Shown: positions 2,025-18,974, counted from the stretch's first letter. The stretch: 20,000 bases of DNA from an uncultured virus (IMG/VR IMGVR_UViG_3300043434_000674) (IMGVR_UViG_3300043434_000674), one strand, 5' to 3'. A program made the numbers and translations. The notes: a model not told the origin generated them from the sequence alone.

Positions 2025-2831
2025 ATGAAAAAAGCAATATTTTTAGGAGCATCAAATACACATGGGGTTGGGTTACATTGGTTTAGAGATGTATATGAAT
2101 TTGAAGAAAATATAGATTTCCGATTTCCATTCGACCCTAGCATCGAAGATACCATATTCATAGAAGAAAATCGATTTTCAAAACAACTTTCAAAATATTT
2201 AAATGTTGAAGAAATAAATCTCTCTAGAGCAGGTGGTTCTCCTGCAGAAGCGTTATATTTACTTTCACAAGAAGATTTATCTGATGTTGAATACATAGTA
2301 TTTGAATTATCTGGCATTTACAACTACTTTGATAGATTTTTTCATGCTAATTCTACTGCATCAGAAAAAATACCAAGAACACCATCTGAAATTGAATCAT
2401 TTTTAACTAATAATAAAAATGATAATACCGAAATAAAAAACAAAATTATCGAATGGATTATAAACTATAATCCGCGTGAATTTATGAATGCAGTTTTTAT
2501 AAAACTCAACGATTTTATAAATGCAAATTCACATATAAAATTTTCAATACTAATTTGGAGAGATGTTTTAGATTTTACCAATATAAATTTACAATTTTTA
2601 GAAAAACATATTGTAAAATTTCCTCTACTAAACGATGAAACTAATATTTTAGTTGAAAAATATTTAATTGAAAATAAAAACATAATTCATGATGAATTTA
2701 AGTGGATTGATAAATTTCCATTACCACCAACTATGAAAGAATTACACCCATCGTTAAATGGCCATAATAAAATATTTGAAATACTAAAAAGTTACATAGA
2801 TGAAAGAAACACTCTTAATAATTGGAGATAG
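2025..2831 (+). CDS. SGNH/GDSL-like hydrolase-fold protein
   Basis: Block I FLGASNTHG, block II NLSRAGGS, C-terminal ELHPSLNGHNKI. Confidence 0.7.
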   Translation: MKKAIFLGASNTHGVGLHWFRDVYEFEENIDFRFPFDPSIEDTIFIEENRFSKQLSKYLNVEEINLSRAGGSPAEALYLLSQEDLSDVEYIVFELSGIYNYFDRFFHANSTASEKIPRTPSEIESFLTNNKNDNTEIKNKIIEWIINYNPREFMNAVFIKLNDFINANSHIKFSILIWRDVLDFTNINLQFLEKHIVKFPLLNDETNILVEKYLIENKNIIHDEFKWIDKFPLPPTMKELHPSLNGHNKIFEILKSYIDERNTLNNWR

Positions 2832-3369
2832 TTTTGCTGCTGATTGGAGTAGTAAATCAAACTCGTTGGGTTGGGTAAATAAATTAGAATTTGATTACGA
2901 TGTAACTAATTTAGCACAAGCAGGAGTTAGTGAATATAAATTGTATTTACAATTACAATCGGTGAATCCCAAAAACTATGACCATATAATTGTATCACAT
3001 ACATCAGCATACAGAATACCAATCGAAGAACATCCTATTCATAAGGGTGATTCACTTCATAATGATTGTGATATTATCTTTTCAGATGTCAAAGAACATT
3101 TAGAAAATCCAATAATGAAAACTGCATATGATTTTTATTCTGAAATATTTTACGCAGATTATTTTGTATTTATTAATGATTTGATTTTTGATAAGATATA
3201 CAAAGAAATCCCATCAGCAACACATATAACCTTCTTTGATTCATTTTATTCAGATAAAGTAATCAAATTCGAAGAAATATTTTTAAAACATCGAGGCTAT
3301 ACCAATCATTTAACTGATAAAGGTAATGAATATATCTACGATAATATTAAAAAATTGTTAGGTAAATAA
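2800..3369 (+). CDS. SGNH/GDSL-like hydrolase-fold protein
   Basis: IIGDSFA, NLAQAGVS and C-terminal TNHLTDKGN motifs. Overlaps the upstream gene by 32 nt. Confidence 0.7.
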   Translation: MKETLLIIGDSFAADWSSKSNSLGWVNKLEFDYDVTNLAQAGVSEYKLYLQLQSVNPKNYDHIIVSHTSAYRIPIEEHPIHKGDSLHNDCDIIFSDVKEHLENPIMKTAYDFYSEIFYADYFVFINDLIFDKIYKEIPSATHITFFDSFYSDKVIKFEEIFLKHRGYTNHLTDKGNEYIYDNIKKLLGK

Positions 3370-3390
3370 ACCTATAAATAAACATTTCTA

Positions 3391-3398
3391 TATTTATA
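3391..3398 (+). promoter_or_regulatory. Putative phage late-promoter motif TATTTATA
   Basis: Intergenic, 35 nt before the ATG at 3434. The motif recurs before several other genes. Confidence 0.5.
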
Positions 3399-3433: not shown

Positions 3434-4684
3434 ATGAAGTTATCACAAGTAAAATCGGCAATAAAAGAAACAATTAGAGAAAAATTTAAACAATCTCTAA
3501 CAGAAGCATCATATAACTTAGGTAGTGAGCAATATACTAAGAGAAATATGACACCAGTTCAAATATTAGATTTGGCAATGGCATATGCAAAAGTACCAGG
3601 TAAAGGTAATCCTATGTATGGTAAGAAAATGCAAAAGATGATAGTTGTTGCTAATGATTTGGCTAGATTAAACGGAACTATTCAACAAGACCATAGAATT
3701 CGTACTAAAGAACCTGCACTTATATTAAGTTTGTTGAAAAATAAATTAGTTTCCAAAGAAGAATACGTTGAATTATATAACAATTTACTACAAAAACAAA
3801 TTAGTGTGATTGCTGCTTTGAAAAACGCAGACCCCGCATCAAGAATAGTGGGTGGTGCTGCAGCAAGACAAGCACACAAAGATATGAAGGGTGAGTTTGA
3901 AGAATCCGTAAACGAAGTAAAATATCCAACTGATTTAAAAATAGGTTCGGTTATTAAAGGACAAGGGTTTACTCGTTTAAAAGGAATTGATGGTGGTAAA
4001 TACTATAAGATTGTTGATATGGATGATACCACTGCAACATTGACTAGAACTGACCCATCAGGAAAAGTAAGTTCACCAACTAAAGTTAGACATAAATTAG
4101 ATTCAATCGAAGCCGGTATCAAAACTGCTAAGAGAGGTGATGAAAACGGAATCGTTGTAATCAAAGAATCAGTAAACGAATCATTAAAACATCTGATTCA
4201 CGTAGAAACTCCCAAAGAAATTTTATCAAAAGATGTTGCAAAACAAATTATGACATTAGCCAAAAAAGGTGTTCGTTCATCTGAAATTGGATTGAATATG
4301 GGATTCATTGGTAATAATACCGCAGCAGTTAATTCATTTCAAAAAGTTAAAAATCAAATATATTTTTCATTAGATAAAAGAAACGAATCAGTAAACGAAG
4401 CATTCCAAAAAGGTAAAACTTATGGTGGAACTAAATGTGAAGGTGGGTGTTTCATTGGTAAACAAGGTTTGATGAAAATAATTAAAATCTCAAAAGAAAA
4501 TCCAACGGATGTATTCATATTTAGAGATGATAATTACTCTGGACTACAACCACATTTTATTAAGAATGGTGTAATTGCAAAAGCAAACACAATAGGTAAT
4601 CCATCTTACGATTTAGAAAAGCATAAAATAAATAATTTAAAAATCGGTAATGATGTAATTCTTTCCGTAAGAATATTTGTCTAA
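3434..4684 (+). CDS. Modular putative internal head/cargo polyprotein: leader plus four modules separated by ESVNE
   Basis: Leader MKLSQVKSAIKETIRE...LTE. ESVNE occurs three times (3902, 4166, 4385), separating mutually unrelated segments. Confidence 0.55.
   Translation: MKLSQVKSAIKETIREKFKQSLTEASYNLGSEQYTKRNMTPVQILDLAMAYAKVPGKGNPMYGKKMQKMIVVANDLARLNGTIQQDHRIRTKEPALILSLLKNKLVSKEEYVELYNNLLQKQISVIAALKNADPASRIVGGAAARQAHKDMKGEFEESVNEVKYPTDLKIGSVIKGQGFTRLKGIDGGKYYKIVDMDDTTATLTRTDPSGKVSSPTKVRHKLDSIEAGIKTAKRGDENGIVVIKESVNESLKHLIHVETPKEILSKDVAKQIMTLAKKGVRSSEIGLNMGFIGNNTAAVNSFQKVKNQIYFSLDKRNESVNEAFQKGKTYGGTKCEGGCFIGKQGLMKIIKISKENPTDVFIFRDDNYSGLQPHFIKNGVIAKANTIGNPSYDLEKHKINNLKIGNDVILSVRIFV
3902..3916 (+). 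repeat. ESVNE linker repeat copy (gaatccgtaaacgaa)
   Basis: 14/15 identical to the copies at 4166 and 4385. Confidence 0.85.
4166..4180 (+). repeat. ESVNE linker repeat copy (gaatcagtaaacgaa)
   Basis: Identical to 4385-4399. Confidence 0.85.
4385..4399 (+). repeat. ESVNE linker repeat copy (gaatcagtaaacgaa)
   Basis: Identical to 4166-4180. The extended 4379-4402 matches 6397-6420 at 21/24. Confidence 0.85.
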
Positions 4685-4699
4685 TTAAGTAATATTAAA

Positions 4700-4999
4700 A
4701 TGATAAGTTTAAGAAATATAATGAGTAAAAATAAGTGGGAAGGTAAGAATATCGAATTAGGTAAAGTATATTCGAATCCATACCATACCGCATTTAAACC
4801 ATTGAAAGAAGAGGAAGACCATGAAGTATTTATGGGACACTCTCTTTTAGATGATATTATAAAAAACGCAACAGAGTTAAAAGAAAAAATAGGAGAAACG
4901 GAAACAGATATCCCCGCATGGATACAAGACCATATATCCCAGTCACAAAATTTTATTAACCAAGCCAATACAGGTTACTATGATAATAACTCCAAATAA
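4700..4999 (+). CDS. Hypothetical phage protein with leader (putative head-associated)
   Basis: Leader-like MISLRNIM...PLKE, then a helical module DHEV.M....L..II.NA.EL...I......PAWIQ.HI that I recall from large-myovirus hypotheticals. Confidence 0.55.
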   Translation: MISLRNIMSKNKWEGKNIELGKVYSNPYHTAFKPLKEEEDHEVFMGHSLLDDIIKNATELKEKIGETETDIPAWIQDHISQSQNFINQANTGYYDNNSK

Positions 5000-5010
5000 G
5001 TGGGTTAGAT

Positions 5011-5634
5011 ATGGAATTAAAATATATGGAAACAATCACAACAGTCGTAATAGCATTAATTACCGCAGTAGTAGGTCCGGCAACATTAGAGTGGGTTCGC
5101 GTTAAACTTAAAAAAGATGTAATGCCAGACCCGATTCGTAATGAGTTAGAATCTGCTAAAATTATAGATGAAGATATTGAAGATATTAGAGAATATCTCA
5201 ATGCAGATAGAATTTGGGTATCAATGTTTCACAATGGTGGACATTTCTTACATTCAAACAAATCTATCCAAAAATTTTCAATAATGTATGAATCTACCAA
5301 AAATGGTGTTTCAAAAATAGCCCCAACATTTACCAATATACCCGTATCACTTTTCCTAAAATCAAATGAGGAAATTTTAAATTCCGGTCATATATTCATA
5401 TCTAATTTTGAAGACCCAACTCAAGCAACATTTGGATTGAAAGAAGCAGCAGTTGCAAGTGGTGCTAAAGCAACATACGCAGTTGGTTTATTCGATATTA
5501 AAACTGAAATTTGCATTGGAACATTGGGGATTGATTATCTAACATCAAAGAAACTAACAATAGAACAAAAATCATTTTTGATCGAACGTTGTAATCGTTT
5601 ATCAGGATACATCTCAATATTCTTAAAAAGTTAA
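5011..5634 (+). CDS. N-terminal TM + GAF-like domain protein; putative holin (T4 T-like architecture)
   Basis: Single hydrophobic helix (TTVVIALITAVVGPA), then LNADRIWVSMFHNGG..FSIMYE...IGTLGIDY, a GAF-like pattern. Alternative start at 5026. Confidence 0.5.
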   Translation: MELKYMETITTVVIALITAVVGPATLEWVRVKLKKDVMPDPIRNELESAKIIDEDIEDIREYLNADRIWVSMFHNGGHFLHSNKSIQKFSIMYESTKNGVSKIAPTFTNIPVSLFLKSNEEILNSGHIFISNFEDPTQATFGLKEAAVASGAKATYAVGLFDIKTEICIGTLGIDYLTSKKLTIEQKSFLIERCNRLSGYISIFLKS

Positions 5635-5652
5635 AAAAACAATATAATATAT

Positions 5653-5679
5653 AACCCATTGATTTTCAATGGGTTTTTT
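5653..5679 (+). terminator. Rho-independent terminator
   Basis: Stem aacccattga/tcaatgggtt (5653-5662/5666-5675) running into a T-tract, 18 nt after the stop at 5634. Confidence 0.85.
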
Positions 5680-5705
5680 ATTGCCCAAAAATAAGTGGTA
5701 AAATA

Positions 5706-5737
5706 TTTGGAAAATCCATAAAATAGTTGTATATTAG
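5706..5737 (+). promoter_or_regulatory. Bacteroidota-type sigma promoter (TTTG-N20-TATATTAG)
   Basis: One mismatch to the -33 TTTG / -7 TAnnTTTG consensus. Lies just after the terminator. Confidence 0.7.
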
Positions 5738-5747
5738 CTCTATAAGA

Positions 5748-6119
5748 ATGAGAGATATGACCCAAAAAGAAATACAAAAATTAGTGTTTGAAGTCTATGA
5801 AAAAATTACCAAACATTATGGTGAATCCAATCATCAACACTCAATTCCATATGTAGTATTTGAAGATTCACCTTATGATGATGCGGATGATCCTGATTTA
5901 ATCGGTGAGTATTGTTCAATGATGAATGAAATTGTGGTGTATTGGAAGAATATACCATCTCCAGAGGTTTTAATCAGAACAATGGTTCACGAATACCAAC
6001 ACTACTTACAATCTCCCTCTTGGATGACTAGATATTATAAAATGGGATATGGATATAATAACCATCCATATGAGATTCAGGCATATAATGAAGAAGAAAA
6101 TTGGGTAAAGTTTGTTTAA
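5748..6119 (+). CDS. Small zincin-type metallopeptidase-like protein (HExxH)
   Basis: TMVHEYQHYLQ plus downstream NHPYEIQAY with a third-ligand Glu. The TTG at 5727 lies inside the promoter, so the start is more likely ATG 5748 or 5757. Confidence 0.7.
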   Translation: MRDMTQKEIQKLVFEVYEKITKHYGESNHQHSIPYVVFEDSPYDDADDPDLIGEYCSMMNEIVVYWKNIPSPEVLIRTMVHEYQHYLQSPSWMTRYYKMGYGYNNHPYEIQAYNEEENWVKFV

Positions 6120-6123
6120 TTTA

Positions 6124-6131
6124 TATTTATA
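6124..6131 (+). promoter_or_regulatory. Putative phage late-promoter motif TATTTATA
   Basis: 19 nt upstream of the ATG at 6151, heading a run of leader-bearing genes. Confidence 0.5.
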
Positions 6132-6150
6132 GTATAATAAAGGAATTAAT

Positions 6151-6711
6151 ATGAAATTACAAGATATTTTAAACGAAGTGAGTTTAACTCCAAAGGCAGC
6201 TAAGTTTTTAGATGCTATCCAAATTCACGATAGAGGTATTAAAGATTTAAAAAATATCACTGTCGATGCATCTCCACAAGGAAACTGGTCTGTCTATTAC
6301 AAAGGTAAAAGATTAGGGACAGTAAATTCTCGTTTATTGGACGATGATACAATTCGAAAATATGGGTTAGAACATTACGAACATTCTTATTTTGGAAGAA
6401 ATGAATCAGTAAATGAGGCAACTCAAAAAATCGTAAAAGATGCTGATGCTAAAAGAGATTTTATGAAACATTTAGAAAAGAATAACAAATCTATTCAAAA
6501 AATGGCAGATTTTCATAAAGTATCTACGGAAAGAATTGTCAAAGGTTTAGAAAAATTCATTAGAATACTACACTACGAATTACCAAATGGTAAACCATCG
6601 GTATTATCGATTAGTATAAAAATGAAAGAACCAAAAAGTAAAGTTAGTATTTATGATGGATTTGCTTATACTGAAAGTGGTGAACAGCTTCCATATAACG
6701 GACCATTTTAA
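6151..6711 (+). CDS. Putative internal head/cargo protein, two modules
   Basis: Leader MKLQDILNE; internal RNESVNEA linker (6397-6420). Confidence 0.55.
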   Translation: MKLQDILNEVSLTPKAAKFLDAIQIHDRGIKDLKNITVDASPQGNWSVYYKGKRLGTVNSRLLDDDTIRKYGLEHYEHSYFGRNESVNEATQKIVKDADAKRDFMKHLEKNNKSIQKMADFHKVSTERIVKGLEKFIRILHYELPNGKPSVLSISIKMKEPKSKVSIYDGFAYTESGEQLPYNGPF

Positions 6712-6726
6712 TAAAAATTAAATATC

Positions 6727-7053
6727 ATGATAACATTAAAGTCAATTATTGCTAACGCAAAAATAACACCAAGTATTAACGAGGTCAACGATACCTATTT
6801 TAACTCATTTACCGATGCAGTTTCTTACGCTAGAAAAGCAGCAGAAAAAAGAGGATTTGAAATCAACGAAGATGATTGGCAAACTCAAATTGCATTAGGT
6901 GGTAAGTATTCTCGTTCAAGACCAAGTGCTGGTAAAACTAATACATTTAGTGTTGGGGTATTAAAAGGTGGGAAACCACAAAGAAAAAACCTTAACATTT
7001 CAGTATATGGAATGGAGAGTGGTAAATTTGAATTAACTTATTATATTAACTAA
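6727..7053 (+). CDS. Hypothetical phage protein with leader
   Basis: Leader MITLKSII...SINE. The C-terminal L.I.VYGM..GK.EL..Y pattern is one I recall from T4-like phage hypotheticals. Confidence 0.55.
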   Translation: MITLKSIIANAKITPSINEVNDTYFNSFTDAVSYARKAAEKRGFEINEDDWQTQIALGGKYSRSRPSAGKTNTFSVGVLKGGKPQRKNLNISVYGMESGKFELTYYIN

Positions 7054-7054
7054 T

Positions 7055-7402
7055 ATGAAATTAAAAGATATATTAAAAGAAAGTAATGGGTTTGAGTTTC
7101 CACATTGGTCAGGAAATGTAAAATTTACACCGATACCAAAAAATGGTAAAATTATTTTATTACCATCATCAATGAAAGATGTGGATGGAATTGATTCAAT
7201 AAAACAAAAATTAAGTGGAAATCTTGCTCAATATACCTTAGCTAAAAGAGGAATGGGTAAAGGTGGCGATGCTGATTTTTTGGAATTATTAAAACAACAA
7301 TTAGAAAAAAAATTAAAATTAAAAGTCATCTTTGATAAGACATATAGTGGAGCAGGTTATGCTTTTGAGATTAATATGGATGATTTATTAAAGAGATTAT
7401 AA
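7055..7402 (+). CDS. Hypothetical phage protein with leader
   Basis: Leader MKLKDILKE; tightly packed, with a TAATG overlap to the next gene. Confidence 0.55.
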   Translation: MKLKDILKESNGFEFPHWSGNVKFTPIPKNGKIILLPSSMKDVDGIDSIKQKLSGNLAQYTLAKRGMGKGGDADFLELLKQQLEKKLKLKVIFDKTYSGAGYAFEINMDDLLKRL

Positions 7403-7761
7403 TGATTAAATTGGTTGATATATTACAAGAAATAAGTCCTACCTACAATTGTGGTGAGGTGGGGTGGAACTGGCCATTTGCAGATGAAGAAACTATTGCT
7501 AAGGGTTGGGAAAAAAGTAGATTATATCACATATTCAATGATTCATTAAAAGATTGGGAAGAAATTACATTTCACAAAATGGGAACTATTATGCATCAAC
7601 ATGATATTGACCACAACAATGCAGAATTGGCAGGTAAACCACAATCACATGATTCGATACATCATGGTGGATACGAATTTGTTAAAAATCTATATGATAA
7701 AAAAGAAGTAGACCAATATATCGATACAACACCCCATCCAGATCCTGAAAGGAAATATTAA
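7402..7761 (+). CDS. Hypothetical His-rich phage protein with leader
   Basis: Leader MIKLVDILQE; His cluster (HQHDIDH...HDSIHH). Confidence 0.55.
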   Translation: MIKLVDILQEISPTYNCGEVGWNWPFADEETIAKGWEKSRLYHIFNDSLKDWEEITFHKMGTIMHQHDIDHNNAELAGKPQSHDSIHHGGYEFVKNLYDKKEVDQYIDTTPHPDPERKY

Positions 7762-7766
7762 TTAAA

Positions 7767-8534
7767 ATGGAAGTAAGAGGATACGTTCACCCATATAAGA
7801 ATTTTGCAACTATTGCGGAGTGGGAGAGTATTGCCAAACAATTCATTGCATTAGAACAACAAGGATTTGATACAAGAGGTGGAATGATTGATAATAATCC
7901 CCAATTAGTTTCATTAGTAAATCAATGGTTTGGATTTCAATTGTATGTAGAAACTCAGCGATACCCACAACTTAAACAAAAAATGGTTTTAGATTTCATT
8001 GAAGATTTTGTAAATCATAGAGTTTGGGGATTAAAAGATGAATTTAAAGATTATATCGTTAATATAAACAATGATAAGTTTGCATTCTTTTATAGTAGGG
8101 GTGCAATTGAACCATATATCCTCCTAGATAAGAGTTTTACTGAAGATGTCTATGGAACTACCAATGAGATAGTTAAAACCCTACATTGGACAAATAAAGA
8201 GGGTTTAGCAAATATCATAGATGGTATTCAGAATAAATCACAATTTTCAATTTCAACCTTCACAACTCAGGCTAAAGAATTCTTCAGACCAGATAGTAAT
8301 ATCTTAGTAAGAATAAAAGGTAAATTAGTAGCAGCATTCAAATCTGATGTAAAATCATTGGTAGTTGATAATGGTGATAGAGCAGCAAATCTATTCCGTT
8401 TTGCATATCAAGATGAAGAATCGAACTTATGTAAAAACGTAGATGATTGCAGAGAAAATAAGACAAATCTGTGGAACGAAATTATCATAAAACCAACCGG
8501 AATAATTGATTATAAAGTGATAAAAAAGTATTAA
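7767..8534 (+). CDS. Hypothetical protein, possible ADP-ribosyltransferase-like C-terminal fold
   Basis: The ORF is solid. Motif order LHWT..GL..I / ISTFT / WNEIII resembles the three ART core strands, but the functional call is weak. Confidence 0.4.
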   Translation: MEVRGYVHPYKNFATIAEWESIAKQFIALEQQGFDTRGGMIDNNPQLVSLVNQWFGFQLYVETQRYPQLKQKMVLDFIEDFVNHRVWGLKDEFKDYIVNINNDKFAFFYSRGAIEPYILLDKSFTEDVYGTTNEIVKTLHWTNKEGLANIIDGIQNKSQFSISTFTTQAKEFFRPDSNILVRIKGKLVAAFKSDVKSLVVDNGDRAANLFRFAYQDEESNLCKNVDDCRENKTNLWNEIIIKPTGIIDYKVIKKY

Positions 8535-8539
8535 AAATA

Positions 8540-8571
8540 TTTGGTAATATCAAATATTATTACTATATTAG
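8540..8571 (+). promoter_or_regulatory. Bacteroidota-type sigma promoter (TTTG-N20-TATATTAG)
   Basis: Same architecture as 5706-5737. The inverted repeat aatatttg/caaatatt (8536-8558) overlaps the -33 box. Confidence 0.7.
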
Positions 8572-8594
8572 CTTTATAAACGTTAAGAGATAAG

Positions 8595-9398
8595 ATGATA
8601 AAATTAAGAGATTTACTAAATGAGGGAGAAACTAAAAATCCACTAATCAAACGATTATTGGCAGAATTAAAACCCTTAATTGCTGATATCATCGAAGATA
8701 CTAAACAAAGGTATAAAAAAGAAGATAAAGTGTTTAGTGATTATGATGCATATTACACCGAAATCACCTTAAAATATGATATGGTTAAGGCTTTGGAAAA
8801 ATATACATTATCTACTGATAAAATGAGTGAGGTTAAAGTAAAAAATTCATCTAAAGGTTCATTTCAAATCAGTTGTATAATCGAAAGAGATGGTAATAAA
8901 TACCCATTCAACACCGAAGTAATTTATGCAGGTGGGTATAACATTCAGAAATTACACTTTCGTTATTTAACTAAAACAACCTTACCACAAACTGGCCAAT
9001 CTATTGAAACTCAAAAGTTGAAAGCTGAATTGGTTAAATTATCCAAAGGTGAGAAATTACAAAAGGAAATTGAACATAATAAAAAAGTTATTGAATTAAA
9101 TCAGAATTTAATTGATAAAAATTCTAAATTCAATGATAAACAAATTTTGAAGATGGTTAATGATGGTGATAACGTATCGGGGAAACCATTCATCTGGCCA
9201 AGTTGGGAAGAAATTGTTAAAAGAGGTGTTGCTCAAAATTACAATAATGATGAAAAATATTACAATCAACAAAAGAAACAATCGGAAGAAGATAGTATAG
9301 TATTTTGGAAAAAGAAAAACATAAGTTGGAAACAAGATGCAATTAAAACCGCTCAACAAAATATAGTAAAAGCTCAAAAGAAATTGGACAATTTATAA
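8595..9398 (+). CDS. Hypothetical phage protein with leader; C-terminal coiled coil
   Basis: Leader MIKLRDLLNE; charged heptad-like C-terminal half. Confidence 0.55.
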   Translation: MIKLRDLLNEGETKNPLIKRLLAELKPLIADIIEDTKQRYKKEDKVFSDYDAYYTEITLKYDMVKALEKYTLSTDKMSEVKVKNSSKGSFQISCIIERDGNKYPFNTEVIYAGGYNIQKLHFRYLTKTTLPQTGQSIETQKLKAELVKLSKGEKLQKEIEHNKKVIELNQNLIDKNSKFNDKQILKMVNDGDNVSGKPFIWPSWEEIVKRGVAQNYNNDEKYYNQQKKQSEEDSIVFWKKKNISWKQDAIKTAQQNIVKAQKKLDNL

Positions 9399-9946
9399 TG
9401 ATAAAATTAACAGACATGATAAGTAGAAGTTTATTCGTAGAATCAAAAAAATTGAGGATATTCGATTTTGATGATACTCTAGTAAAAACAACATCATTTA
9501 TATACATTACACATTCAGATGGTAAAAAATCTAAATTAACTCCCGGTCAATACGCAGTTTATACTGAAAGACCAGGTGATGTATATGATTTTAAAGATTT
9601 TGAATCTGTTAAGAACCCAGAAGAAATTACTAAAATAACAAATATTCTTAAAAACATAATTAGAGTTAGTGGTGGAGAAGGTGTGTATATTTTAACTGCC
9701 CGTGCTGCATATCAACCAATTAAAAATTACTTAAAAGATATTGGAATCAATTCAAACAAAGTATTTGTAGTTGCGTTAGGTTCTAATAATCCAAAAGATA
9801 AAGCAGATTGGATTGAGAAGAAAATTGATAACGATGGGTATGATGATATTTACTTTGCAGATGATTCCGAAAAGAATGTTGAAGCAGCAAAACAAATGTT
9901 GCGTAGTAAGAATGTTAAGTGGAGAGTTCAGCAAATAAAACACTAA
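9398..9946 (+). CDS. HAD-superfamily phosphatase (PNK-phosphatase / RNA-repair-like HAD) with leader
   Basis: Motif I IFDFDDTLV, motif II ILTAR, motif III Lys (KDKA), motif IV FADDSEKNV; leader MIKLTDMI...FVE. Confidence 0.8.
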   Translation: MIKLTDMISRSLFVESKKLRIFDFDDTLVKTTSFIYITHSDGKKSKLTPGQYAVYTERPGDVYDFKDFESVKNPEEITKITNILKNIIRVSGGEGVYILTARAAYQPIKNYLKDIGINSNKVFVVALGSNNPKDKADWIEKKIDNDGYDDIYFADDSEKNVEAAKQMLRSKNVKWRVQQIKH

Positions 9947-9971
9947 TTTATATTTTGTAATCATTTTCTTA

Positions 9972-9979
9972 TATTTATA
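9972..9979 (+). promoter_or_regulatory. Putative phage late-promoter motif TATTTATA
   Basis: Intergenic, 22 nt upstream of the ATG at 10002. Confidence 0.45.
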
Positions 9980-10001
9980 TAAAATAAAGGGAGTATGATA
10001 C

Positions 10002-10226
10002 ATGAAAAGGTTTTTAACAAAATGTTCAGAGTTATTATTTAAAGGATTCGCAATATTCACACTAATGTGGATATCATTTGCATTATTATTTGATGTATTC
10101 TTCATCTACTTACATTTCACCAACCCAGAAAAAGGTCAATATTATTCCAATGAGATAATGTGGAGAATAGATGGCACTTTTAAGAACAATCCTAAAAATA
10201 TCTGGTACGAAGAAAAAACTAAATAA
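10002..10226 (+). CDS. Small membrane protein
   Basis: One long hydrophobic segment (FAIFTLMWISFALLFDVFFIYL); GGAG upstream. Confidence 0.55.
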   Translation: MKRFLTKCSELLFKGFAIFTLMWISFALLFDVFFIYLHFTNPEKGQYYSNEIMWRIDGTFKNNPKNIWYEEKTK

Positions 10227-10245
10227 CGGAAAACTCTAATTCATA

Positions 10246-10253
10246 TATTTATA
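10246..10253 (+). promoter_or_regulatory. Putative phage late-promoter motif TATTTATA
   Basis: Intergenic, 26 nt upstream of the ATG at 10280. Confidence 0.5.
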
Positions 10254-10279
10254 TGATATAAAGAATTATTGATAATACT

Positions 10280-11839
10280 ATGCCGTCATCATCAAAACAA
10301 CAACAAAAATTTATGGGTATGGTTCATGCACTTCAAAAAGGTGATATGAATCAATCTGATGCATCTGCTGAATTAAAGAAAGTTGCAAAAGATATGAATC
10401 CATCTGATGTTAATGATTTTGCATCTACCAAACATAAGGGATTACCTAAGAAGGTAAAGCAAGAAATTGTAAAACGATTAAAGGAATATGCAATGATGAT
10501 TCCAAACCATCAAACACAACCTTCTGCACCTAAAGATTCTTTACGTTCCGATGATGAAATGGATGTAAATGAAAACTTTCCAGCAAATTGGTTAGTAGGT
10601 AGAGTTTCAGACCAACATAGTCAATTAGGAACTACACCTAGAGAAGATTACGATGATACTAATTTTGATAAAGATGATTCTGGACAAGAAGATTTAGAAA
10701 GTGAAAATATGAACGAAGCACCTGAAATACAAACCATTACTAAAAAAGAGTGGTCTAAAATTAAAAACTTTAACAAACACATCGGCCAAGATGGAACTCA
10801 TTATGTAATGGCTTATAGTGATAAATTGGGAACACATTTAAACCCAGTAAAAATCGTAAAAGAATCTAAACTTAATGAAAGTTGGGATATAAAGGATGGT
10901 AAAGTTTTATACAATAATAAACTTATAGGATATTACTCATTTGATAGAGATTCTGATTCATTTTGGGTAGATGATGTGAAGAAAGGAAAAGGACAAATAT
11001 CATTTGATACCAAAAAAGAAGTTGAAGATTACTTTAAGAAGAATGCAAAAGATGCACTTAAACATTTAGGAAAAATGAGAGAATCGGTAACCGAATCATC
11101 TAACCCATCCGATATTATAAAGGATTTAGATAAAGTCAGAACTGATTTAATTAAAAAAGTAGATGTTTTAATTGCCAAAAAGAAAAAATTATATTCAGAT
11201 GTAGATATTGAATCACCAATGTCAGCAGATGAAAAAAAGTTGGATAAAGATATACAAACTATATTTTCACAAATTCAACAAATCATTCAACAAAAGAGAA
11301 AAATAAAAACCGAATCAATAAACGATGAACTTTCTGATAACGAAAGAGAAATGGTTGTTGGTATAATTGATATTTTAAAACAAGTTAAAGATAAAGAAAA
11401 TCGAAAAGAAATTGCTTTAAATATGATTAAGCAATTTAAAGAAGAGAATATTGATTTTGATTATTCTGTATTCTTATCTCAATTAAAAGAATATGGTTCT
11501 AATCTAACTGATACATTCTTATTACCACGTCATTCTGATAAATTATCCGGAACACCAACTGAAAAGAATGCAATTGATAATCCAGATAGTGAAGATGGTA
11601 ATTTATACGAAGTAGGGTTGGGTGATTGGCATTTTAAAGCAATTCAAAAATTATATCAAAAGGCCGGAGCGTTTGGAAGAAAAAAGATAGCAGCAGTTAT
11701 CACTAAAAATCCAAATTCGGCATGGAGTAAAATTGAAAGAGAACTTCAAGATTCCGATTACTATGAAATTTCAGATTATAGTGATAAATTAGGATTAAGT
11801 GAAGTTGTTGAAAATATAATTAAAAAACGAACTAAGTAG
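10280..11839 (+). CDS. Modular putative cargo polyprotein with N-terminal DUF3008-like domain
   Basis: N-terminal MPSSSKQQQK...DFASTKHKGLP matches my recollection of DUF3008. Internal linkers: DVNE, NMNE, KESKLNE, RESVTE, TESINDE, LKE, LYE. Confidence 0.6.
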   Translation: MPSSSKQQQKFMGMVHALQKGDMNQSDASAELKKVAKDMNPSDVNDFASTKHKGLPKKVKQEIVKRLKEYAMMIPNHQTQPSAPKDSLRSDDEMDVNENFPANWLVGRVSDQHSQLGTTPREDYDDTNFDKDDSGQEDLESENMNEAPEIQTITKKEWSKIKNFNKHIGQDGTHYVMAYSDKLGTHLNPVKIVKESKLNESWDIKDGKVLYNNKLIGYYSFDRDSDSFWVDDVKKGKGQISFDTKKEVEDYFKKNAKDALKHLGKMRESVTESSNPSDIIKDLDKVRTDLIKKVDVLIAKKKKLYSDVDIESPMSADEKKLDKDIQTIFSQIQQIIQQKRKIKTESINDELSDNEREMVVGIIDILKQVKDKENRKEIALNMIKQFKEENIDFDYSVFLSQLKEYGSNLTDTFLLPRHSDKLSGTPTEKNAIDNPDSEDGNLYEVGLGDWHFKAIQKLYQKAGAFGRKKIAAVITKNPNSAWSKIERELQDSDYYEISDYSDKLGLSEVVENIIKKRTK

Positions 11840-11861: not shown

Positions 11862-12332
11862 ATGATATATTGGTTTACAGGACAACCAGGAGCAGGTAAA
11901 ACTGTCTTAGGTAAAAAGTTACATAAGTTTTTAGAAACAGAAAAACGCAATTGGCGTAAAAACGTATTTCATTTAGATGGTGATCATCTGCGTGAAATTA
12001 CTAATAATAAAGATTATTCTGAAGAAGGTAGAAAGAATAATATCAGAACTGCACAGACAATAGTTGAATATCTACACTTAAATAGATGTGATGTTGTCGT
12101 TTCATTAGTTGCACCATTCATCGAACTACGGGAAGAGTTGAAAGATAAAATCGGACCAGATATGGTTGAGATTTACGTCCACACAACCGAACCTAGAGAA
12201 CGTGATCATTTCCACGTTAAAGATTACGAATCCCCTCAAGTAAATTTCATCGATGTGAATACTACAAAAGATTCACCGGATATTTCATTTTCAAAATTAA
12301 TAAATCATTTGAATAAATTAAAAAAATTATAA
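11862..12332 (+). CDS. cysC: Adenylylsulfate (APS) kinase-like protein, short form
   Basis: WFTGQPGAGKT P-loop, LDGDHLR, DYSEEGRKNNI, VVSLVAPF..LRE, EIYV and YESP motifs. Confidence 0.8.
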   Translation: MIYWFTGQPGAGKTVLGKKLHKFLETEKRNWRKNVFHLDGDHLREITNNKDYSEEGRKNNIRTAQTIVEYLHLNRCDVVVSLVAPFIELREELKDKIGPDMVEIYVHTTEPRERDHFHVKDYESPQVNFIDVNTTKDSPDISFSKLINHLNKLKKL

Positions 12333-12712
12333 TGAATAAAAAATACGCACTTTACATCGGTAGATGGCAAAACTGGCATTCTGGTCATCAATGGTTAATT
12401 GATCAACAATTCCAAAAAGGTAATAATGTTTGGATTGCAATTAGAGATGTTGATAGAGATGATAACAATCCCAAAACTGCAAAAGAAATATTAGATAATT
12501 TGACAGAAGAATTAAAAGGTTATTTATCTACGGGTAGATTATACATTTCAATCATACCAGATATCGAATCAGTAAATTATGGTAGAGGAGTTGGGTATGA
12601 TGTCATATACCACGAACCACCAACTGATATTGCATCAATTAGCGGAACTGCAATCAGAACTGGTCATATGAAACCAGATGGTTCATTAACCTACGATGAA
12701 AATAAAGGATAA
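12332..12712 (+). CDS. Cytidyltransferase-like (HxGH) nucleotidyltransferase
   Basis: IGRWQNWHSGH and ISGTAIR motifs; translationally coupled (TAATG). Confidence 0.8.
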   Translation: MNKKYALYIGRWQNWHSGHQWLIDQQFQKGNNVWIAIRDVDRDDNNPKTAKEILDNLTEELKGYLSTGRLYISIIPDIESVNYGRGVGYDVIYHEPPTDIASISGTAIRTGHMKPDGSLTYDENKG

Positions 12713-12933
12713 TGATAGTCCAACCTAAACGTCATATTGCTAAAACCATCTCCTATCGTATTTTAAGTACCCTTGTAGGGTTTCTTTTGATGTGGTGGAT
12801 AAGTGGTTCAATTGAAGTTGGAACTGCGTTTGGTATTGCAGAATTGGTGTATAAACCGATTCAATATTATCTACATGAACGAGTATGGTATAAGTGGATT
12901 AAATATGGTCTAAAGAAAGATGACAAAAATTAA
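12712..12933 (+). CDS. DUF2061-like small membrane protein
   Basis: RHIAKTISYRILST...AELVYKPIQYYLHERVW matches the DUF2061 pattern (K...WR...YY.HER.W). Confidence 0.8.
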   Translation: MIVQPKRHIAKTISYRILSTLVGFLLMWWISGSIEVGTAFGIAELVYKPIQYYLHERVWYKWIKYGLKKDDKN

Positions 12934-13798
12934 ATACATAAATTGTTTTGGAACATCAAACACTGCTGGAGGTGGTTTCGAATTCGATTCACCTACACAA
13001 GGGTGGTTCATTAATAAATTGTATGGCCATATAACAAACGAAGAAAAAACCATTTTTAACTTTTCATATCCAGGACAAATACAAAAGTTAGTTTCAAAAA
13101 ATGTAAAGGTTAATAATTTTGGAAAACAAGGATGTGGTAATGAAAGAGTAATTAGAAAATCATATGAAATTATTGATTCACATGGTTTTAATAAAGATGA
13201 ACATATTTTTATATTTGAAATTACTGGATTAGGTAGAAGAGAATTTTTCTTTAAGAAAATAAATGATTATATAATTTGTAATTATCAGATTGATGAAAAT
13301 GATAAAGCAGTTTTCTTAGCAACTGCAAATCATTACAATTATGATTCGGATGAAACTATTAAATTATTAGAAACCTATGACCCTTTTTTTGAAACTTATT
13401 TAACTGATTTTTTTGATATTAAAAATGAAGTTGATGAACATAGAAGAATGGTAGATTTGTTTCTTGCATATTTAGAATCCAAAAATATAAATTATTATTT
13501 TACAATGACACCACAGAATCATGAGTATCGAAAATCATGTGAATTATTATTCGGAGATGGAAAATATTTTCAACAAACAAAAGATATGATGGATTTTTCA
13601 TTTGTAAATAAATTAACAATTAAAGATGAAACTGGTCATCAATCAAACGATATGCACATTGGGTTAAAGGGTAATAAACTGATTGCAAATGTAATTTATA
13701 ATAAATTGGTAAACGATGGAATGTTGGATACACCAATTAAAGAAATAGATTGGGAAACCTACAAAAACACAAAATATATTATACCAAAAGTTATATAA
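12920..13798 (+). CDS. SGNH/GDSL-like hydrolase-fold protein
   Basis: CFGTSNTAGG, NNFGKQGCGN and DMHIGLKGNKLIA motifs. Confidence 0.7.
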   Translation: MTKIKYINCFGTSNTAGGGFEFDSPTQGWFINKLYGHITNEEKTIFNFSYPGQIQKLVSKNVKVNNFGKQGCGNERVIRKSYEIIDSHGFNKDEHIFIFEITGLGRREFFFKKINDYIICNYQIDENDKAVFLATANHYNYDSDETIKLLETYDPFFETYLTDFFDIKNEVDEHRRMVDLFLAYLESKNINYYFTMTPQNHEYRKSCELLFGDGKYFQQTKDMMDFSFVNKLTIKDETGHQSNDMHIGLKGNKLIANVIYNKLVNDGMLDTPIKEIDWETYKNTKYIIPKVI

Positions 13799-13801
13799 GT
13801 T

Positions 13802-14839
13802 ATGGAATTGATAAAACCGAATGTCCGAAATGAATGGGGACAATTAAGAGAAATTATAGTAGGAACTGCAGATTATGCACAGGTACCAACTAAAGGAGAT
13901 AAGTGTTTACATTCAATTGATTACGCACATTTATCCGATGAAGAATTTGCTAATAGACCAAGTGGGGTATATCCTCAAAAATTAATAGATGAAACTCGCG
14001 AAGATTTAGATGGGATAGCGAATACACTTCGTTCATTAGGAGTAAAAGTTCATAGACCAGAGGTTAGAGATTTCTCACAACCGATTATAACTGAAAATTG
14101 GGAAGTAGATGGTTATTACAATTATTGTCCAAGAGATTCAATGTTTGTGGTAAATGATAAGGTAATTGCAACACCCATGACACTACGCCATCGTTCAAAT
14201 GAAGCAGAGACTTGTAAACCTTTATTTGACCCGAATCATTGGGTAGATGCACCAAAACCAAAATTATTAGATTCAATTTATCAGAGAGAAGATTTATCAA
14301 TACCAACTCTATTAGATGGTGAACCAGTATTTGATGCTGCGAACGTAATCAAACATAATAATGATATTCTTTATTTAGTTTCAAATACAGGTAATAAGGA
14401 TGGTGCAAAATGGTTAGAAATTTATTGTAAAGAAACCTTCGGTAATGAATACAATGTTCATCTAGCAGAAAATGTTTACGCATATATACACATCGATACT
14501 ACCTTTGTATTTTTAGGTGAAGGTAAGGTTCTTTTGAATCCGGCTAGAGTTAGATGGCAAAACTTACCCGAATTTTTAAAAGATTTCGATAAGATTTGGG
14601 CACCCGAACCATATCCAACACAAGTATTAGAAGATTGGTGTCCTGCATCACCCTGGTTAGGAATGAATATTTTACCAATAAACGATAAACTTTGTATGGT
14701 AGAAGAACACCAAACTCTTTTAATGATGGAATTGAAAAAGTGGGGAATTGAATCTATTCCAACAAAGATGAGACATGCACGAACGTTTAGTGGAGGACCT
14801 CATTGTGTCACATTGGATGTAGTTAGGGATGAAAAATAA
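13802..14839 (+). CDS. Amidinotransferase (glycine / inosamine-phosphate amidinotransferase family)
   Basis: NEWGQLREIIVG, CPRD, FDAAN, HIDTT and GGPHCVTLD motifs; the Asp-His-Cys catalytic residues are intact. Confidence 0.9.
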   Translation: MELIKPNVRNEWGQLREIIVGTADYAQVPTKGDKCLHSIDYAHLSDEEFANRPSGVYPQKLIDETREDLDGIANTLRSLGVKVHRPEVRDFSQPIITENWEVDGYYNYCPRDSMFVVNDKVIATPMTLRHRSNEAETCKPLFDPNHWVDAPKPKLLDSIYQREDLSIPTLLDGEPVFDAANVIKHNNDILYLVSNTGNKDGAKWLEIYCKETFGNEYNVHLAENVYAYIHIDTTFVFLGEGKVLLNPARVRWQNLPEFLKDFDKIWAPEPYPTQVLEDWCPASPWLGMNILPINDKLCMVEEHQTLLMMELKKWGIESIPTKMRHARTFSGGPHCVTLDVVRDEK

Positions 14840-18050: not shown

Positions 18051-18974
18051 ATGAGGTATAGGAATATTGCTTTTTTCGGTGATTCCTTTACTTGGGGTGA
18101 AGGGTTAGAATTGTATTCATCTAATCAAAAATGGATAACGCAACGTAATCTAAAATCAACTTGGCAAGAAATCCAGCCAATTGAAGATTCGGAATCTATT
18201 TTGTTTAGAGAAACTAACCGATTCCCCTATCTGGTAACTAAACATTTCAAATCAAATTTATCAATTGATCATCAGAATGGTGGATCATTTCGTAGTTTAA
18301 TGGTAAAATTAAATTCTGTATTTAATTCAATCAACAAACCCGAAATCCTCATATATCAATTTTCAGCATTCAATCGAAATGATATATGTTTTGAAGAAGA
18401 TTCTAGTAATTTCAATTGCAAATGTAATATATGTGAAGTTAGTGCTAAGTATGATAAATCCTGGCCAATTACATTCGATGTAATTTATCAAATTATCAAT
18501 CAAATGTATTATGGTAATTTAACAGAATATCAACAACACTTAAAAACTCAATTTTCCATTAAATACAATGTTGATTTTGAATTACCGATTGATGAATTAA
18601 TTGATTCGGTTAAATGCATTGAAATTTCAAAAACAAAAATACATTTAGAATATTTGTTTGATACTTACTTTAAGAAGTTGGAATCCGATGGTGTATCTGT
18701 ATTTTTTATTGATTCTTGGGATAATATGGCTAGAGAATCGTTATTTAAAAATGAGTATTTTTTAGAAAGAGTTATTCCATTAATTGGATATGATGACAAA
18801 TCGTATTCAAAATATTCAGAGTGGGAATCTACGTTTCAGTATAAAAGAATTCTTGATGAATTCCCAAACACACAAAATGCTCATCCAACTTTAATACAAC
18901 ATCAGTATATTGGAAAATCAATAATTGATTTTTTAGAGAAAAAAAACATTAAAAATAAAATTAAGTATATTTAA
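18051..18974 (+). CDS. SGNH/GDSL-like hydrolase-fold protein
   Basis: FFGDSFTWG, NGGS and NAHPTLIQHQYIG motifs. Confidence 0.7.
   Translation: MRYRNIAFFGDSFTWGEGLELYSSNQKWITQRNLKSTWQEIQPIEDSESILFRETNRFPYLVTKHFKSNLSIDHQNGGSFRSLMVKLNSVFNSINKPEILIYQFSAFNRNDICFEEDSSNFNCKCNICEVSAKYDKSWPITFDVIYQIINQMYYGNLTEYQQHLKTQFSIKYNVDFELPIDELIDSVKCIEISKTKIHLEYLFDTYFKKLESDGVSVFFIDSWDNMARESLFKNEYFLERVIPLIGYDDKSYSKYSEWESTFQYKRILDEFPNTQNAHPTLIQHQYIGKSIIDFLEKKNIKNKIKYI

Follow-up and report, generated by a model that had tools for sequence, protein, structure and literature searches.

Exchangeable protein modules joined by an ESVNE linker as probable capsid-targeted cargo of an uncultured T4-superfamily phage

Background

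The internal proteins of phage T4 travel in the virion, enter the host by injection and counteract restriction (PMC9026906, PMC3012670, PMC12373910), and the proteins Ip1-3, which share a leader only, each block a different restriction enzyme (PMC12373910). Cleavage by the T4 prohead protease gp21 follows L/I-x-E and also takes place at a Glu-Ala bond (PMC9026906); core proteins are cut at several sites and the 10-residue targeting peptide of internal proteins is removed (PMC9026906, PMC5694885). Here we analysed a window (the whole stretch of DNA considered, 20,000 nucleotides, to which all positions refer unless stated otherwise) from the uncultured virus IMGVR_UViG_3300043434_000674, in which three genes located between positions 3434 and 11839 encode chains of small modules joined by the pentapeptide ESVNE or variants of it.

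Three other systems offer points of comparison, described here as in the accessible text of the papers cited. Polyvalent proteins of phages and conjugative elements (Iyer et al. 2017) have been proposed to be delivered together with the DNA and processed to separate units (PMC5512222). The promoter-plus-stem-loop elements named PeSLs (Arbiol et al. 2010) have been proposed, and partly shown, to act as homologous-recombination sites at which cassettes of hyperplastic regions are excised and inserted, and homology patches shorter than 50 bp are cited as sufficient for the T4 recombination system (PMC2839356). The phiKZ-like giant phages cut their head proteins with a distant relative of gp21 (PMC9026906, PMC5694885).

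In the locus described here, cassettes are exchanged at the linker, leader peptides can take the place of the linker, a gp21-type protease gene accompanies the linker in the genomes of relatives, and silent positions of the linker show conservation. We consider it probable that the chains are capsid-targeted internal cargo of the T4 style, cut by a protease of the Pfam S77 family and recombining at the linker DNA.

Results and discussion

The largest set of canonical linkers in the window was found in P0001 (3434..4684, + strand, 416 residues), composed of a leader, four modules and three ESVNE linkers. The leader (residues 1-24, 3434..3505) contained the candidate sites ..AIKE and ..SLTE, and was followed by the module 1 core (residues 25-156, 3506..3901), linker 1 (3902..3916, GAATCCGTAAACGAA), module 2 (residues 162-244, 3917..4165), linker 2 (4166..4180, GAATCAGTAAACGAA), module 3 (residues 250-317, 4181..4384), linker 3 (4385..4399, GAATCAGTAAACGAA) and module 4 (residues 323-416, 4400..4681), all on the + strand. 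Module 1 was mostly helical (isoelectric point 9.7 when cut as residues 1-161), module 2 formed a small beta-plus-helix domain (9.4) and module 3 was helical (9.6); with module 4 (9.5), all four were basic and of 8-18 kDa. P0002 (6151..6711, + strand, 186 residues) comprised the leader MKLQDILNE (6151-6177), a first module, one ESVNE (6403-6417) and a second module (6418-6708). P0003 (10280..11839, + strand, 519 residues) could be divided into up to six modules, A (DUF3008, residues 1-98), B (99-146), C (147-200), D (201-272), E (273-350) and F (351-519), at junctions of variant sequence: the weaker candidates DVNE (10562-10573) and ENMNE (10703-10717), then KESKLNE (10859-10879), ESVTE (11081-11095) and ESINDE (11312-11329).

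A previous reading of the window made from its sequence only (hereafter the sequence-only reading) had placed ESVNE three times in P0001, once in P0002 and as the last three variants in P0003. Translation reproduced all of these, at residues 157, 245 and 318 of P0001 (nucleotides 3902, 4166 and 4385) and residue 85 of P0002 (nucleotide 6403). It had also held that the linker is kept as DNA and that the P0001 segments are unrelated: the 15-nucleotide (nt) element GAATCAGTAAACGAA was exact at both 4166 and 4385, positions 4379-4402 and 6397-6420 were identical at 21 of 24 nucleotides, and the modules displayed no mutual similarity at blastp E < 0.01.

Allowing up to two mismatches, the 15-nt linker matched the window six times, each time in frame on the + strand; 200 dinucleotide shuffles averaged 0.06 matches, and not one reached six. 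A phmmer search of P0001 against 1.84 billion cluster representatives returned 283 proteins of 69-1229 residues at E <= 1e-3 (201 at E <= 1e-10), and motifs and architectures were counted in the 150 listed. In these 150 proteins (58,685 residues), ES[VI]NE was observed 241 times where amino-acid composition predicted 0.16. The strict motif, defined as E[SGT][VIL][NTS]E, occurred 298 times (209 of them ESVNE) and at least once in 118 proteins, with a median spacing of 84 residues (5-95% range 50-222). Numbered from the putative cut, 297 sites displayed Glu at P5, Ser at P4, Val, Ile or Leu at P3, Asn at P2 and Glu at P1, and 199 of them continued with Ala, Gly or Ser (P1'). A chance motif was rejected on these shuffle and composition counts, and an internal repeat of a single domain was rejected on the absence of relationship between modules.

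Modules were exchanged at the linker among relatives. The three window proteins were cut at their linkers and each piece was searched separately; architectures were annotated module by module, single-linkage clustering of motif-split segments having merged modules 2-4 through unsplit segments. In the 283 proteins, the best-matching stretches fell on module limits (residues ~1-161, 155-250, 243-325 and 315-416 of P0001). The 150 listed relatives displayed 62 architectures, none of which was M1-M2-M3-M4, and modules A, D and E of P0003, both modules of P0002 and the open reading frames (ORFs) 4700 and 6727 were found fused to P0001 modules. Module 1 occurred alone, N-terminally, internally or C-terminally, and many relatives aligned to it only from about residue 18-22 on, while P0159 retained the P0001 leader (its first ~24 residues) before another module 1 core. 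In viral contigs, P0001 relatives likewise matched in parts only, and these parts ended at linkers. The homologue in the complete relative G001 lacked exactly module 2, which was matched over its whole length in 34 viral loci and stood directly behind an N-terminal leader in P0088; locus L006 had module 1 followed by other modules, L008 the order module 4, module 3, P0002 module 1, and L007 and L011 module 4 at the gene start. The P0002 homologue of G001 ended exactly at the start of the linker, and P0003 module E lay within proteins of 201-1665 residues in dozens of contigs.

A word-indexed search recovered 688 proteins of 228-728 residues, named in their source as 'hypothetical protein' apart from one evidently spurious oxidoreductase label. 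When eight of these proteins, P0001 included, were aligned, all four modules were kept only in the 92-93%-identity relatives P0154 and P0156; P0158 and P0161 had module 3 swapped for another, P0160 and P0164 had no module 2 and one extra module, and linkers 2 and 3 were invariant or nearly so. The expectation that the same modules would recur in other orders and with other partners, bounded by the linker, was thus borne out, with module 1, 2 or 3 replaced exactly at ESVNE in relatives that span the whole query. A stable multidomain protein was rejected, the architecture being constant only at 92-93% identity.

Module borders coincided with the motif far more often than random positions did. 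Among 50%-identity representatives, 93 of 113 N-terminal borders lay on it (52 on the strict form, 32 on the loose form [VILM]-x-E and 9 on an N-terminal leader; random-position control 7.5%), as did 48 of 60 non-redundant N-terminal borders in viral loci (21 strict, 21 loose and 6 leader; control 7.6%). This test was not circular, since the query modules exclude the preceding linker; the C-terminal one (35 of 41 borders in viral loci) was partly so, since the query ends in the motif.

The leaders which could replace a linker followed the pattern M(I)KLxD(I/L)LxE in ORFs 6151, 7055, 7402 and 8595 and in one ORF outside the window, with looser forms in ORFs 3434, 4700, 6727 and 9398, and ended in hydrophobic-x-Glu (..ILNE, ..ILKE, ..ILQE, ..LLNE). 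Such a leader began 19 of the 150 listed relatives. The coding strand of G001 harbored eight leader-bearing ORFs, three in the head module (131207, 137383 with an internal start, and 138675), four in the window-like locus and a last one elsewhere (16857), and the single match on the non-coding strand was taken as spurious. The same module border was served by either element: module 4 was preceded by MISLKE (L007), MKSLKE (L011, P0044) or ESVNE, and P0003 module D by MKLKDLLRE (L056, L058) or KESVNE (L060), while in relatives module 2 followed MIKLASLLKE and P0003 module E followed MRLKDILKE. Leader and linker differed in DNA and shared the hydrophobic-x-Glu ending, which suggests a role exerted by the protein sequence.

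The linker was also conserved at silent sites, as the sequence-only reading had supposed when it proposed a crossover role. At 114 non-identical ES[VI]NE sites compared with codon usage of the same ORFs, Ser was TCA in 61% (against 35%) and AGT in 3% (against 22%), Val was GTA in 93% (against 50%) and Asn was AAC in 67% (against 29%). In a stricter set of 45 linkers with mutually unrelated flanks, GTA accounted for 33 of 36 Val codons (background 50%, p = 1e-7), AAC for 27 of 45 Asn codons (29%, p = 1.5e-5) and TCA or TCG for 36 of 45 Ser codons (41%, p = 1e-7). The module-2 indel between the window and G001 had the 15-nt element on both sides, linker 1 being its left border, and the extra P0002 module began with the linker; a role as crossover site is consistent with these flanking repeats. 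In IMG/VR the exact 15-mer occurred in at least 131 stretches; among the 80 stretches listed, 88 of 104 matches lay within an open ESVNE frame, and 20 loci carried two or three copies, all 24 spacings being multiples of three.

The proposed tie between the linker and a gp21-type prohead protease was recovered in relatives, and the cleavage after (I/L)-x-E on which that proposal relied agrees with the published rule in its accessible text (PMC9026906). In locus L013, the ORF following two linker-bearing genes matched Peptidase_S77 (E = 8e-27, 94.4 bits, cut-off 27) and scored below the cut-off for S80 (17.5 bits against 23.4); S77 was also found in G001 (E = 1.7e-27) and G002 (E = 2.8e-28). The T4-type head module of G001 encoded the large terminase (phrog_2), the portal (phrog_213), the head maturation protease (phrog_207), an acidic scaffold-like protein and a gp23-like capsid protein, the latter with ..LLDE then Ala near the expected propeptide border. 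The strict motif was present in 11 of the 787 G001 ORFs of at least 50 residues, and those with two or more copies were the P0001 homologue and two ORFs directly between portal and protease (134368-135651 with four linkers and 135651-136364 with two), for which no PHROG family was found.

The first of these two, hereafter the carrier, was recovered as 18 ORFs (11 distinct) with constant N-terminal 71 and C-terminal 80 residues, enclosing an interior of 76-349 residues made of one to four motif-bounded, swappable pieces. An S77 ORF lay just downstream in all 11 distinct versions. The first two pieces occurred in swapped order between G001 and L034, and the carrier cargo included window modules: module 3 of P0001 (in L013, L042, L051 and others), module 4, P0002 module 1, and modules D and E of P0003.

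Taken together, a cargo unit would be a small, usually basic module, which could enter the prohead by either of two routes: behind its own leader M-(I)-K-L-x-D-(I/L)-L-x-E, comparable to the T4 capsid targeting sequence, or chained behind a leader or within the core-protein carrier. The joints of the chain would be E-S-(V/I)-N-E plus a small residue, and a gp21-type (S77) protease would cleave behind the final Glu of each leader and linker at head maturation, so that the modules become free within the capsid. In the DNA, the 15-nt linker, nearly invariant, would at the same time offer a homology patch by which modules could be inserted, deleted, replaced and reordered in frame. Cleavage, packaging, ejection into the host and the roles of the modules are what we infer from this arrangement. 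Those predictions of the sequence-only reading that lend themselves to computation were all borne out, and the reading is supported in part. Going further, ESVNE may be a dual protease site and recombination joint serving an integron-like exchange of capsid-loaded, injected effectors, some of them for counter-defence as the sequence-only reading had suggested, with a single leader or the protease-adjacent carrier as the platform on which a constantly changing kit of small effectors is loaded; this we advance tentatively, as possible rather than probable.

Several observations weigh against chains of cut and packaged cargo. The window's own record displayed no S77 match; being a 43% fragment without head genes, it leaves the protease link to rest on relatives, with which it shares genes of about 80-97% identity. 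In G001, some 100 kb separate the head module from the window-like locus. Microcystis phage Mel-JY01 and Flavobacterium phage immuto, the isolates closest in protease sequence (62% and 55%), have no ESVNE chains beside their protease. The T4 rule in print has Leu or Ile at P3, and Val is assumed here; ESINDE in P0003 carries Asn at that position, which breaks the (L/I/V)-x-E rule, and may be a decayed or dead site. No motif was found at 20 of the 113 N-terminal borders, the short (hydrophobic)-x-E rule alone fits 4-6% of random positions, and the sequences share descent, so that counts are not independent events. The full-length structural model was poor as well (mean predicted local distance difference test, pLDDT, of 57), with modules 2 and 4 low.

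The strongest of the alternatives, which we nevertheless consider improbable, is that the chains are cut and serve as disposable prohead core or scaffold in the manner of gp22, gp67 and gp68, with fragments that mostly exit the capsid, or fill it and neutralise DNA charge, and are not delivered effectors. Between portal and protease, the carrier genes occupy the site where T4 has its core-protein genes; T4 core proteins are processed to several fragments, most of which leave the head (PMC9026906, accessible text); and the modules are basic. No module received an enzymatic or anti-defence assignment from Pfam, PHROGs, Foldseek or ESM Atlas. In Pfam only DUF3008 in P0003 was found, other modules giving nothing above cut-off, and PHROGs had no family for any module; Foldseek returned no match at E <= 1e-3 for the full-length P0001 model against PDB and BFVD, and only weak SH3/KOW-like rows (E 0.04-0.3) for the module-2 model against PDB; in ESM Atlas the best score of module 1 was 0.78, to unnamed clusters, and module 4 had no usable match. 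It is hard to see, however, why a filler should consist of hundreds of unrelated, folded and well-conserved modules that exchange rapidly. The 84% identity per column of module 2 across 14 aligned sequences argues for a specific function, and the similarly led internal proteins of T4, which share only the leader, are injected anti-restriction factors (PMC12373910, accessible text).

Still less likely, in our view, is that the products are intact multidomain proteins in which ESVNE is a flexible linker and its DNA is kept as a recombination joint. Silent-site conservation does indicate that the DNA itself is under constraint or homogenised, recombination joints formed by conserved motifs on either side of a cassette have precedent in T4-type phages (PeSL, PMC2839356, accessible text), and cleavage at the linker is a prediction. 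This explanation does not fit the exchange of linker for leader at one border, where the DNA differs and the (L/I/V)-x-E end is the same, nor the Ser codon, which varies among TCA, TCG, TCC and TCT with the peptide kept. Glu at P1 with a small P1' residue fits a gp21-type site, and the motif is concentrated in genes beside the protease gene.

Structural models bear on the same question. Composite alignments A1 and A2 misplaced module-2 fragments, and A3 and A4 were used for folding; A3, with 24 rows, was clean but shallow and gave the full-length P0001 model (predicted template modelling score, pTM, of 0.34). Confidence was highest in module 1 (pLDDT 75-90 at about residues 30-135) and module 3 (~70-82), and fell below 50 at residues 138-191, 214-249 and 315-322, linkers included. 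Modelled alone, module 2 formed a small domain (pLDDT 75, pTM 0.65), and confidence was low in its ESVNE tail. The models, at low confidence, thus agree with the suggestion that no fold spans a linker, and module 2 folds autonomously; the poor full-length model means that contacts between modules may still exist.

That another protease, such as the HExxH protein of ORF 5727-6119 within the locus or a host enzyme, cuts the linkers is very unlikely: this 130-residue protein has the motif HEYQH, its G001 homologue is 85% identical and a zincin-like domain has been proposed to process polyvalent proteins (PMC5512222, accessible text), but it matched no peptidase family at E <= 1, the invariant P1 Glu is a gp21-type hallmark, and the linker-rich carrier is paired with an S77 gene in every distinct version.

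If T4-style chains are indeed processed and packaged, a single leader would carry an entire exchangeable set of small proteins into the virion, which would explain how large aquatic T4-like phages diversify injected proteins. Several hundred protein clusters without assigned function (283 by phmmer, 688 in the word-indexed search) would become candidate injected proteins, and a rule readable in sequence (leader or carrier, ESVNE, small residue) would make capsid content predictable from metagenomes. A protease site doubling as an in-frame recombination joint would also represent an economical natural solution to modular cargo loading, of which a comparable form has been built by hand with the T4 capsid targeting sequence (PMC3012670, PMC9026906).

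Genomic context and neighbouring genes

The window corresponds to the minus strand of G000:C1:27602-47601, G000 being a virus record of 86,089 bases estimated to be 43% complete. Its GC content was about 30%, and all genes considered here lie on its + strand. Judging from ORF N-termini only, G000 encoded replication proteins, chaperonin-like proteins and many sugar-modifying enzymes beyond the window. The best relative, G001, was complete (288,673 bases, direct terminal repeats), and proteins of the genes common to both were ~80-97% identical. Neither megablast of the region nor tblastn of P0001 gave a match among 50,697 phage records. The best explanation is that the window comes from an uncultured T4-superfamily phage of roughly 290 kb and that the locus is hypervariable.

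The polyprotein genes were interspersed with smaller ORFs on the + strand. ORF 4700 (4700..4999, 99 residues) was a fused N-terminal module in relatives (o4700-x-M1, o4700-M3-x), and its homologue in L035 and L037 ran on through SVNE into more sequence. ORF 6727 (6727..7053, 108 residues), whose N-terminal stretch ended in ..PSINE, was elsewhere a C-terminal polyprotein module (M4-o6727, M2-o6727). Two small ORFs with leaders (7055..7402, MKLKDILKE..; 7402..7761, MIKLVDILQE..) and a 267-residue ORF with the leader MIKLRDLLNE.. (8595..9398) followed. ORF 9398-9946 was HAD/polynucleotide-kinase-phosphatase-like (phrog_415, E = 8e-8); in the window and G001 its start resembled a leader, and in L035, L037 and L055 it started six residues later (MISR..).

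The sequence TATATTTATA occurred four times in the window (0.51 expected; 2 of 200 shuffles reached four), at 3389..3398 (+ strand, 35 nt upstream of ORF 3434), 6122..6131 (+ strand, upstream of ORF 6151), 9970 (upstream of ORF 10002) and 10244..10253 (+ strand, upstream of ORF 10280), each copy 22-35 nt ahead of the start. Over all copies the distance was mostly 13-37 nt, with extremes of 3-4. The coding strand carried 35 copies in G001 against one on the other, and 6 against 0 in G000. In G001 it preceded head operons (131207, 133512, 139186, 145724) as well as the homologues of ORFs 3434, 6151 and 10280. Since it precedes head and cargo genes and lies almost exclusively on the coding strand, TATATTTATA is suggestive of a phage promoter shared with late structural genes.

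Other features of the head region and of leader-bearing genes were recorded in relatives. The S77 protease (G001 136380-136973; L013:6981-7574) contained ..PLQESVNK.. near its C-terminus, which is linker-like and includes an L-x-E site; self-cleavage at the C-terminus has been reported for related proteases (PMC5694885). The N-terminus of the G001 carrier (..ELDEATATGDIAGYETP..) resembled that of the capsid protein (140738-142366, ..LLDEATATGTSAGSEEW..), which suggests a common cleavage context. Just upstream of the head module, a protein of 1502 residues (G001 123643-128151; L022:3643-8151) began with a cytidyltransferase/NMNAT-like domain (phrog_395, E = 2e-13) followed by many further segments. 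In cyanophage S-SCSM1, a separate NMNAT was detected in virions by mass spectrometry (PMC9602691), and it starts leader-like with MKSFLQFLKE. Stand-alone homologues of P0003 module A were found in T4-like cyanophages (48 records); the S-SCSM1 homologue (54% identity, 70 residues), beside NMNAT, is named 'virion protein' in its record, and the supplement row for it (ORF93) has no virion-detection mark; this name is the one indirect hint of packaging.

Outside the window, a 194-residue ORF (G000:C1:15111-15695, window-frame 31907-32491, locus L300) started with the leader MIRLTDLLKEE... Two Pfam entries matched it below their cut-off of 27 bits: the 2'-5' RNA ligase (2H) superfamily at 20.3 bits (E = 6e-4) and the anti-CBASS protein Acb1 at 19.5 bits (E = 8.7e-4). 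The ORF offers a lead, and no more, to a putative capsid-targeted counter-defence enzyme.

Among the remaining genes, ORF 560-1993 (477 residues) began like a signal peptide and contained a long middle stretch of low complexity, rich in Ser, Lys and Glu; its C-terminal part was conserved in L011. Several nearby upstream ORFs also began like secreted proteins or lipoproteins. Four ORFs (2025-2831, 2800-3369, 12920-13798 and 18051-18974) opened with a GDS/GTSNT-type block of the kind known from SGNH hydrolases; none of the four had a Pfam match at E <= 0.01. They sat amid sugar- and sulfate-related genes, their neighbours including an APS kinase (11862-12332), a cytidyltransferase-like ORF (12332-12712), DUF2061 and a phrog_25854 protein (13802-14839).

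Comparison with known systems

No description of ESVNE-joined phage polyproteins was found in the literature searched. Among described systems, PeSL cassettes resemble this locus in that a short conserved sequence flanks each variable unit (PMC2839356). A PeSL, however, is an intergenic promoter-plus-stem-loop of ~100 bp that moves whole genes, while the linker described here is a 15-nt in-frame coding sequence that moves protein modules; the likeness is functional only.

Polyvalent proteins share with the chains mosaic architectures and many unrelated domains per polypeptide, their number in polyvalent proteins being two to fifteen. According to the accessible text, they consist of known enzymatic and anti-restriction domains with a zincin-like peptidase (PMC5512222), whereas the modules described here are much smaller and parted by a pentapeptide that fits a prohead protease. 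Pfam found none of the polyvalent hallmark domains (zincin-like peptidase, methylases, ParB-like, ArdC-N, LPD) in the modules, and the term 'DUF3008' does not occur in the accessible text of the polyvalent-protein paper.

The inner-body and ejection proteins of the phiKZ-like giants 201phi2-1 and SPN3US form a further parallel. Many head proteins of these phages are processed behind the Glu of a three-residue motif, often more than once per protein, as would be the case here. Their cuts remove long propeptides, and the accessible descriptions of them contain no exchangeable pentapeptide-linked chains; the protease of the present lineage scores as S77, that of the phiKZ type as S80.

With gp22, gp67 and gp68 of T4, the portal-protease ORFs share a gene position between portal and protease or scaffold and several protease sites per protein, and no homology to T4 core proteins was detected in them. 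They differ in carrying exchangeable, conserved, domain-sized segments shared with a distant locus.

The closest likeness is to the T4 internal proteins IPI, IPII, IPIII and Alt, although Pfam, PHROG and tblastn of P0001 found no similarity to any T4 protein, these included. In both systems, small proteins that are unrelated elsewhere share a short leader ending in hydrophobic-x-Glu, a gp21-type (S77) protease is encoded by the phage, and the genes lie in a variable genomic hotspot. Repoila et al. in 1994 reportedly described the exchange of T-even internal-protein genes through conserved leader DNA. The T4 proteins are packaged and cut, as the present chains would be. Unlike in T4, a conserved internal site strings several unrelated modules together within one gene, chains also lie within a core-protein carrier, and the linker is conserved at silent sites. 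The system is best read as T4-style capsid-targeted internal proteins extended to chains.

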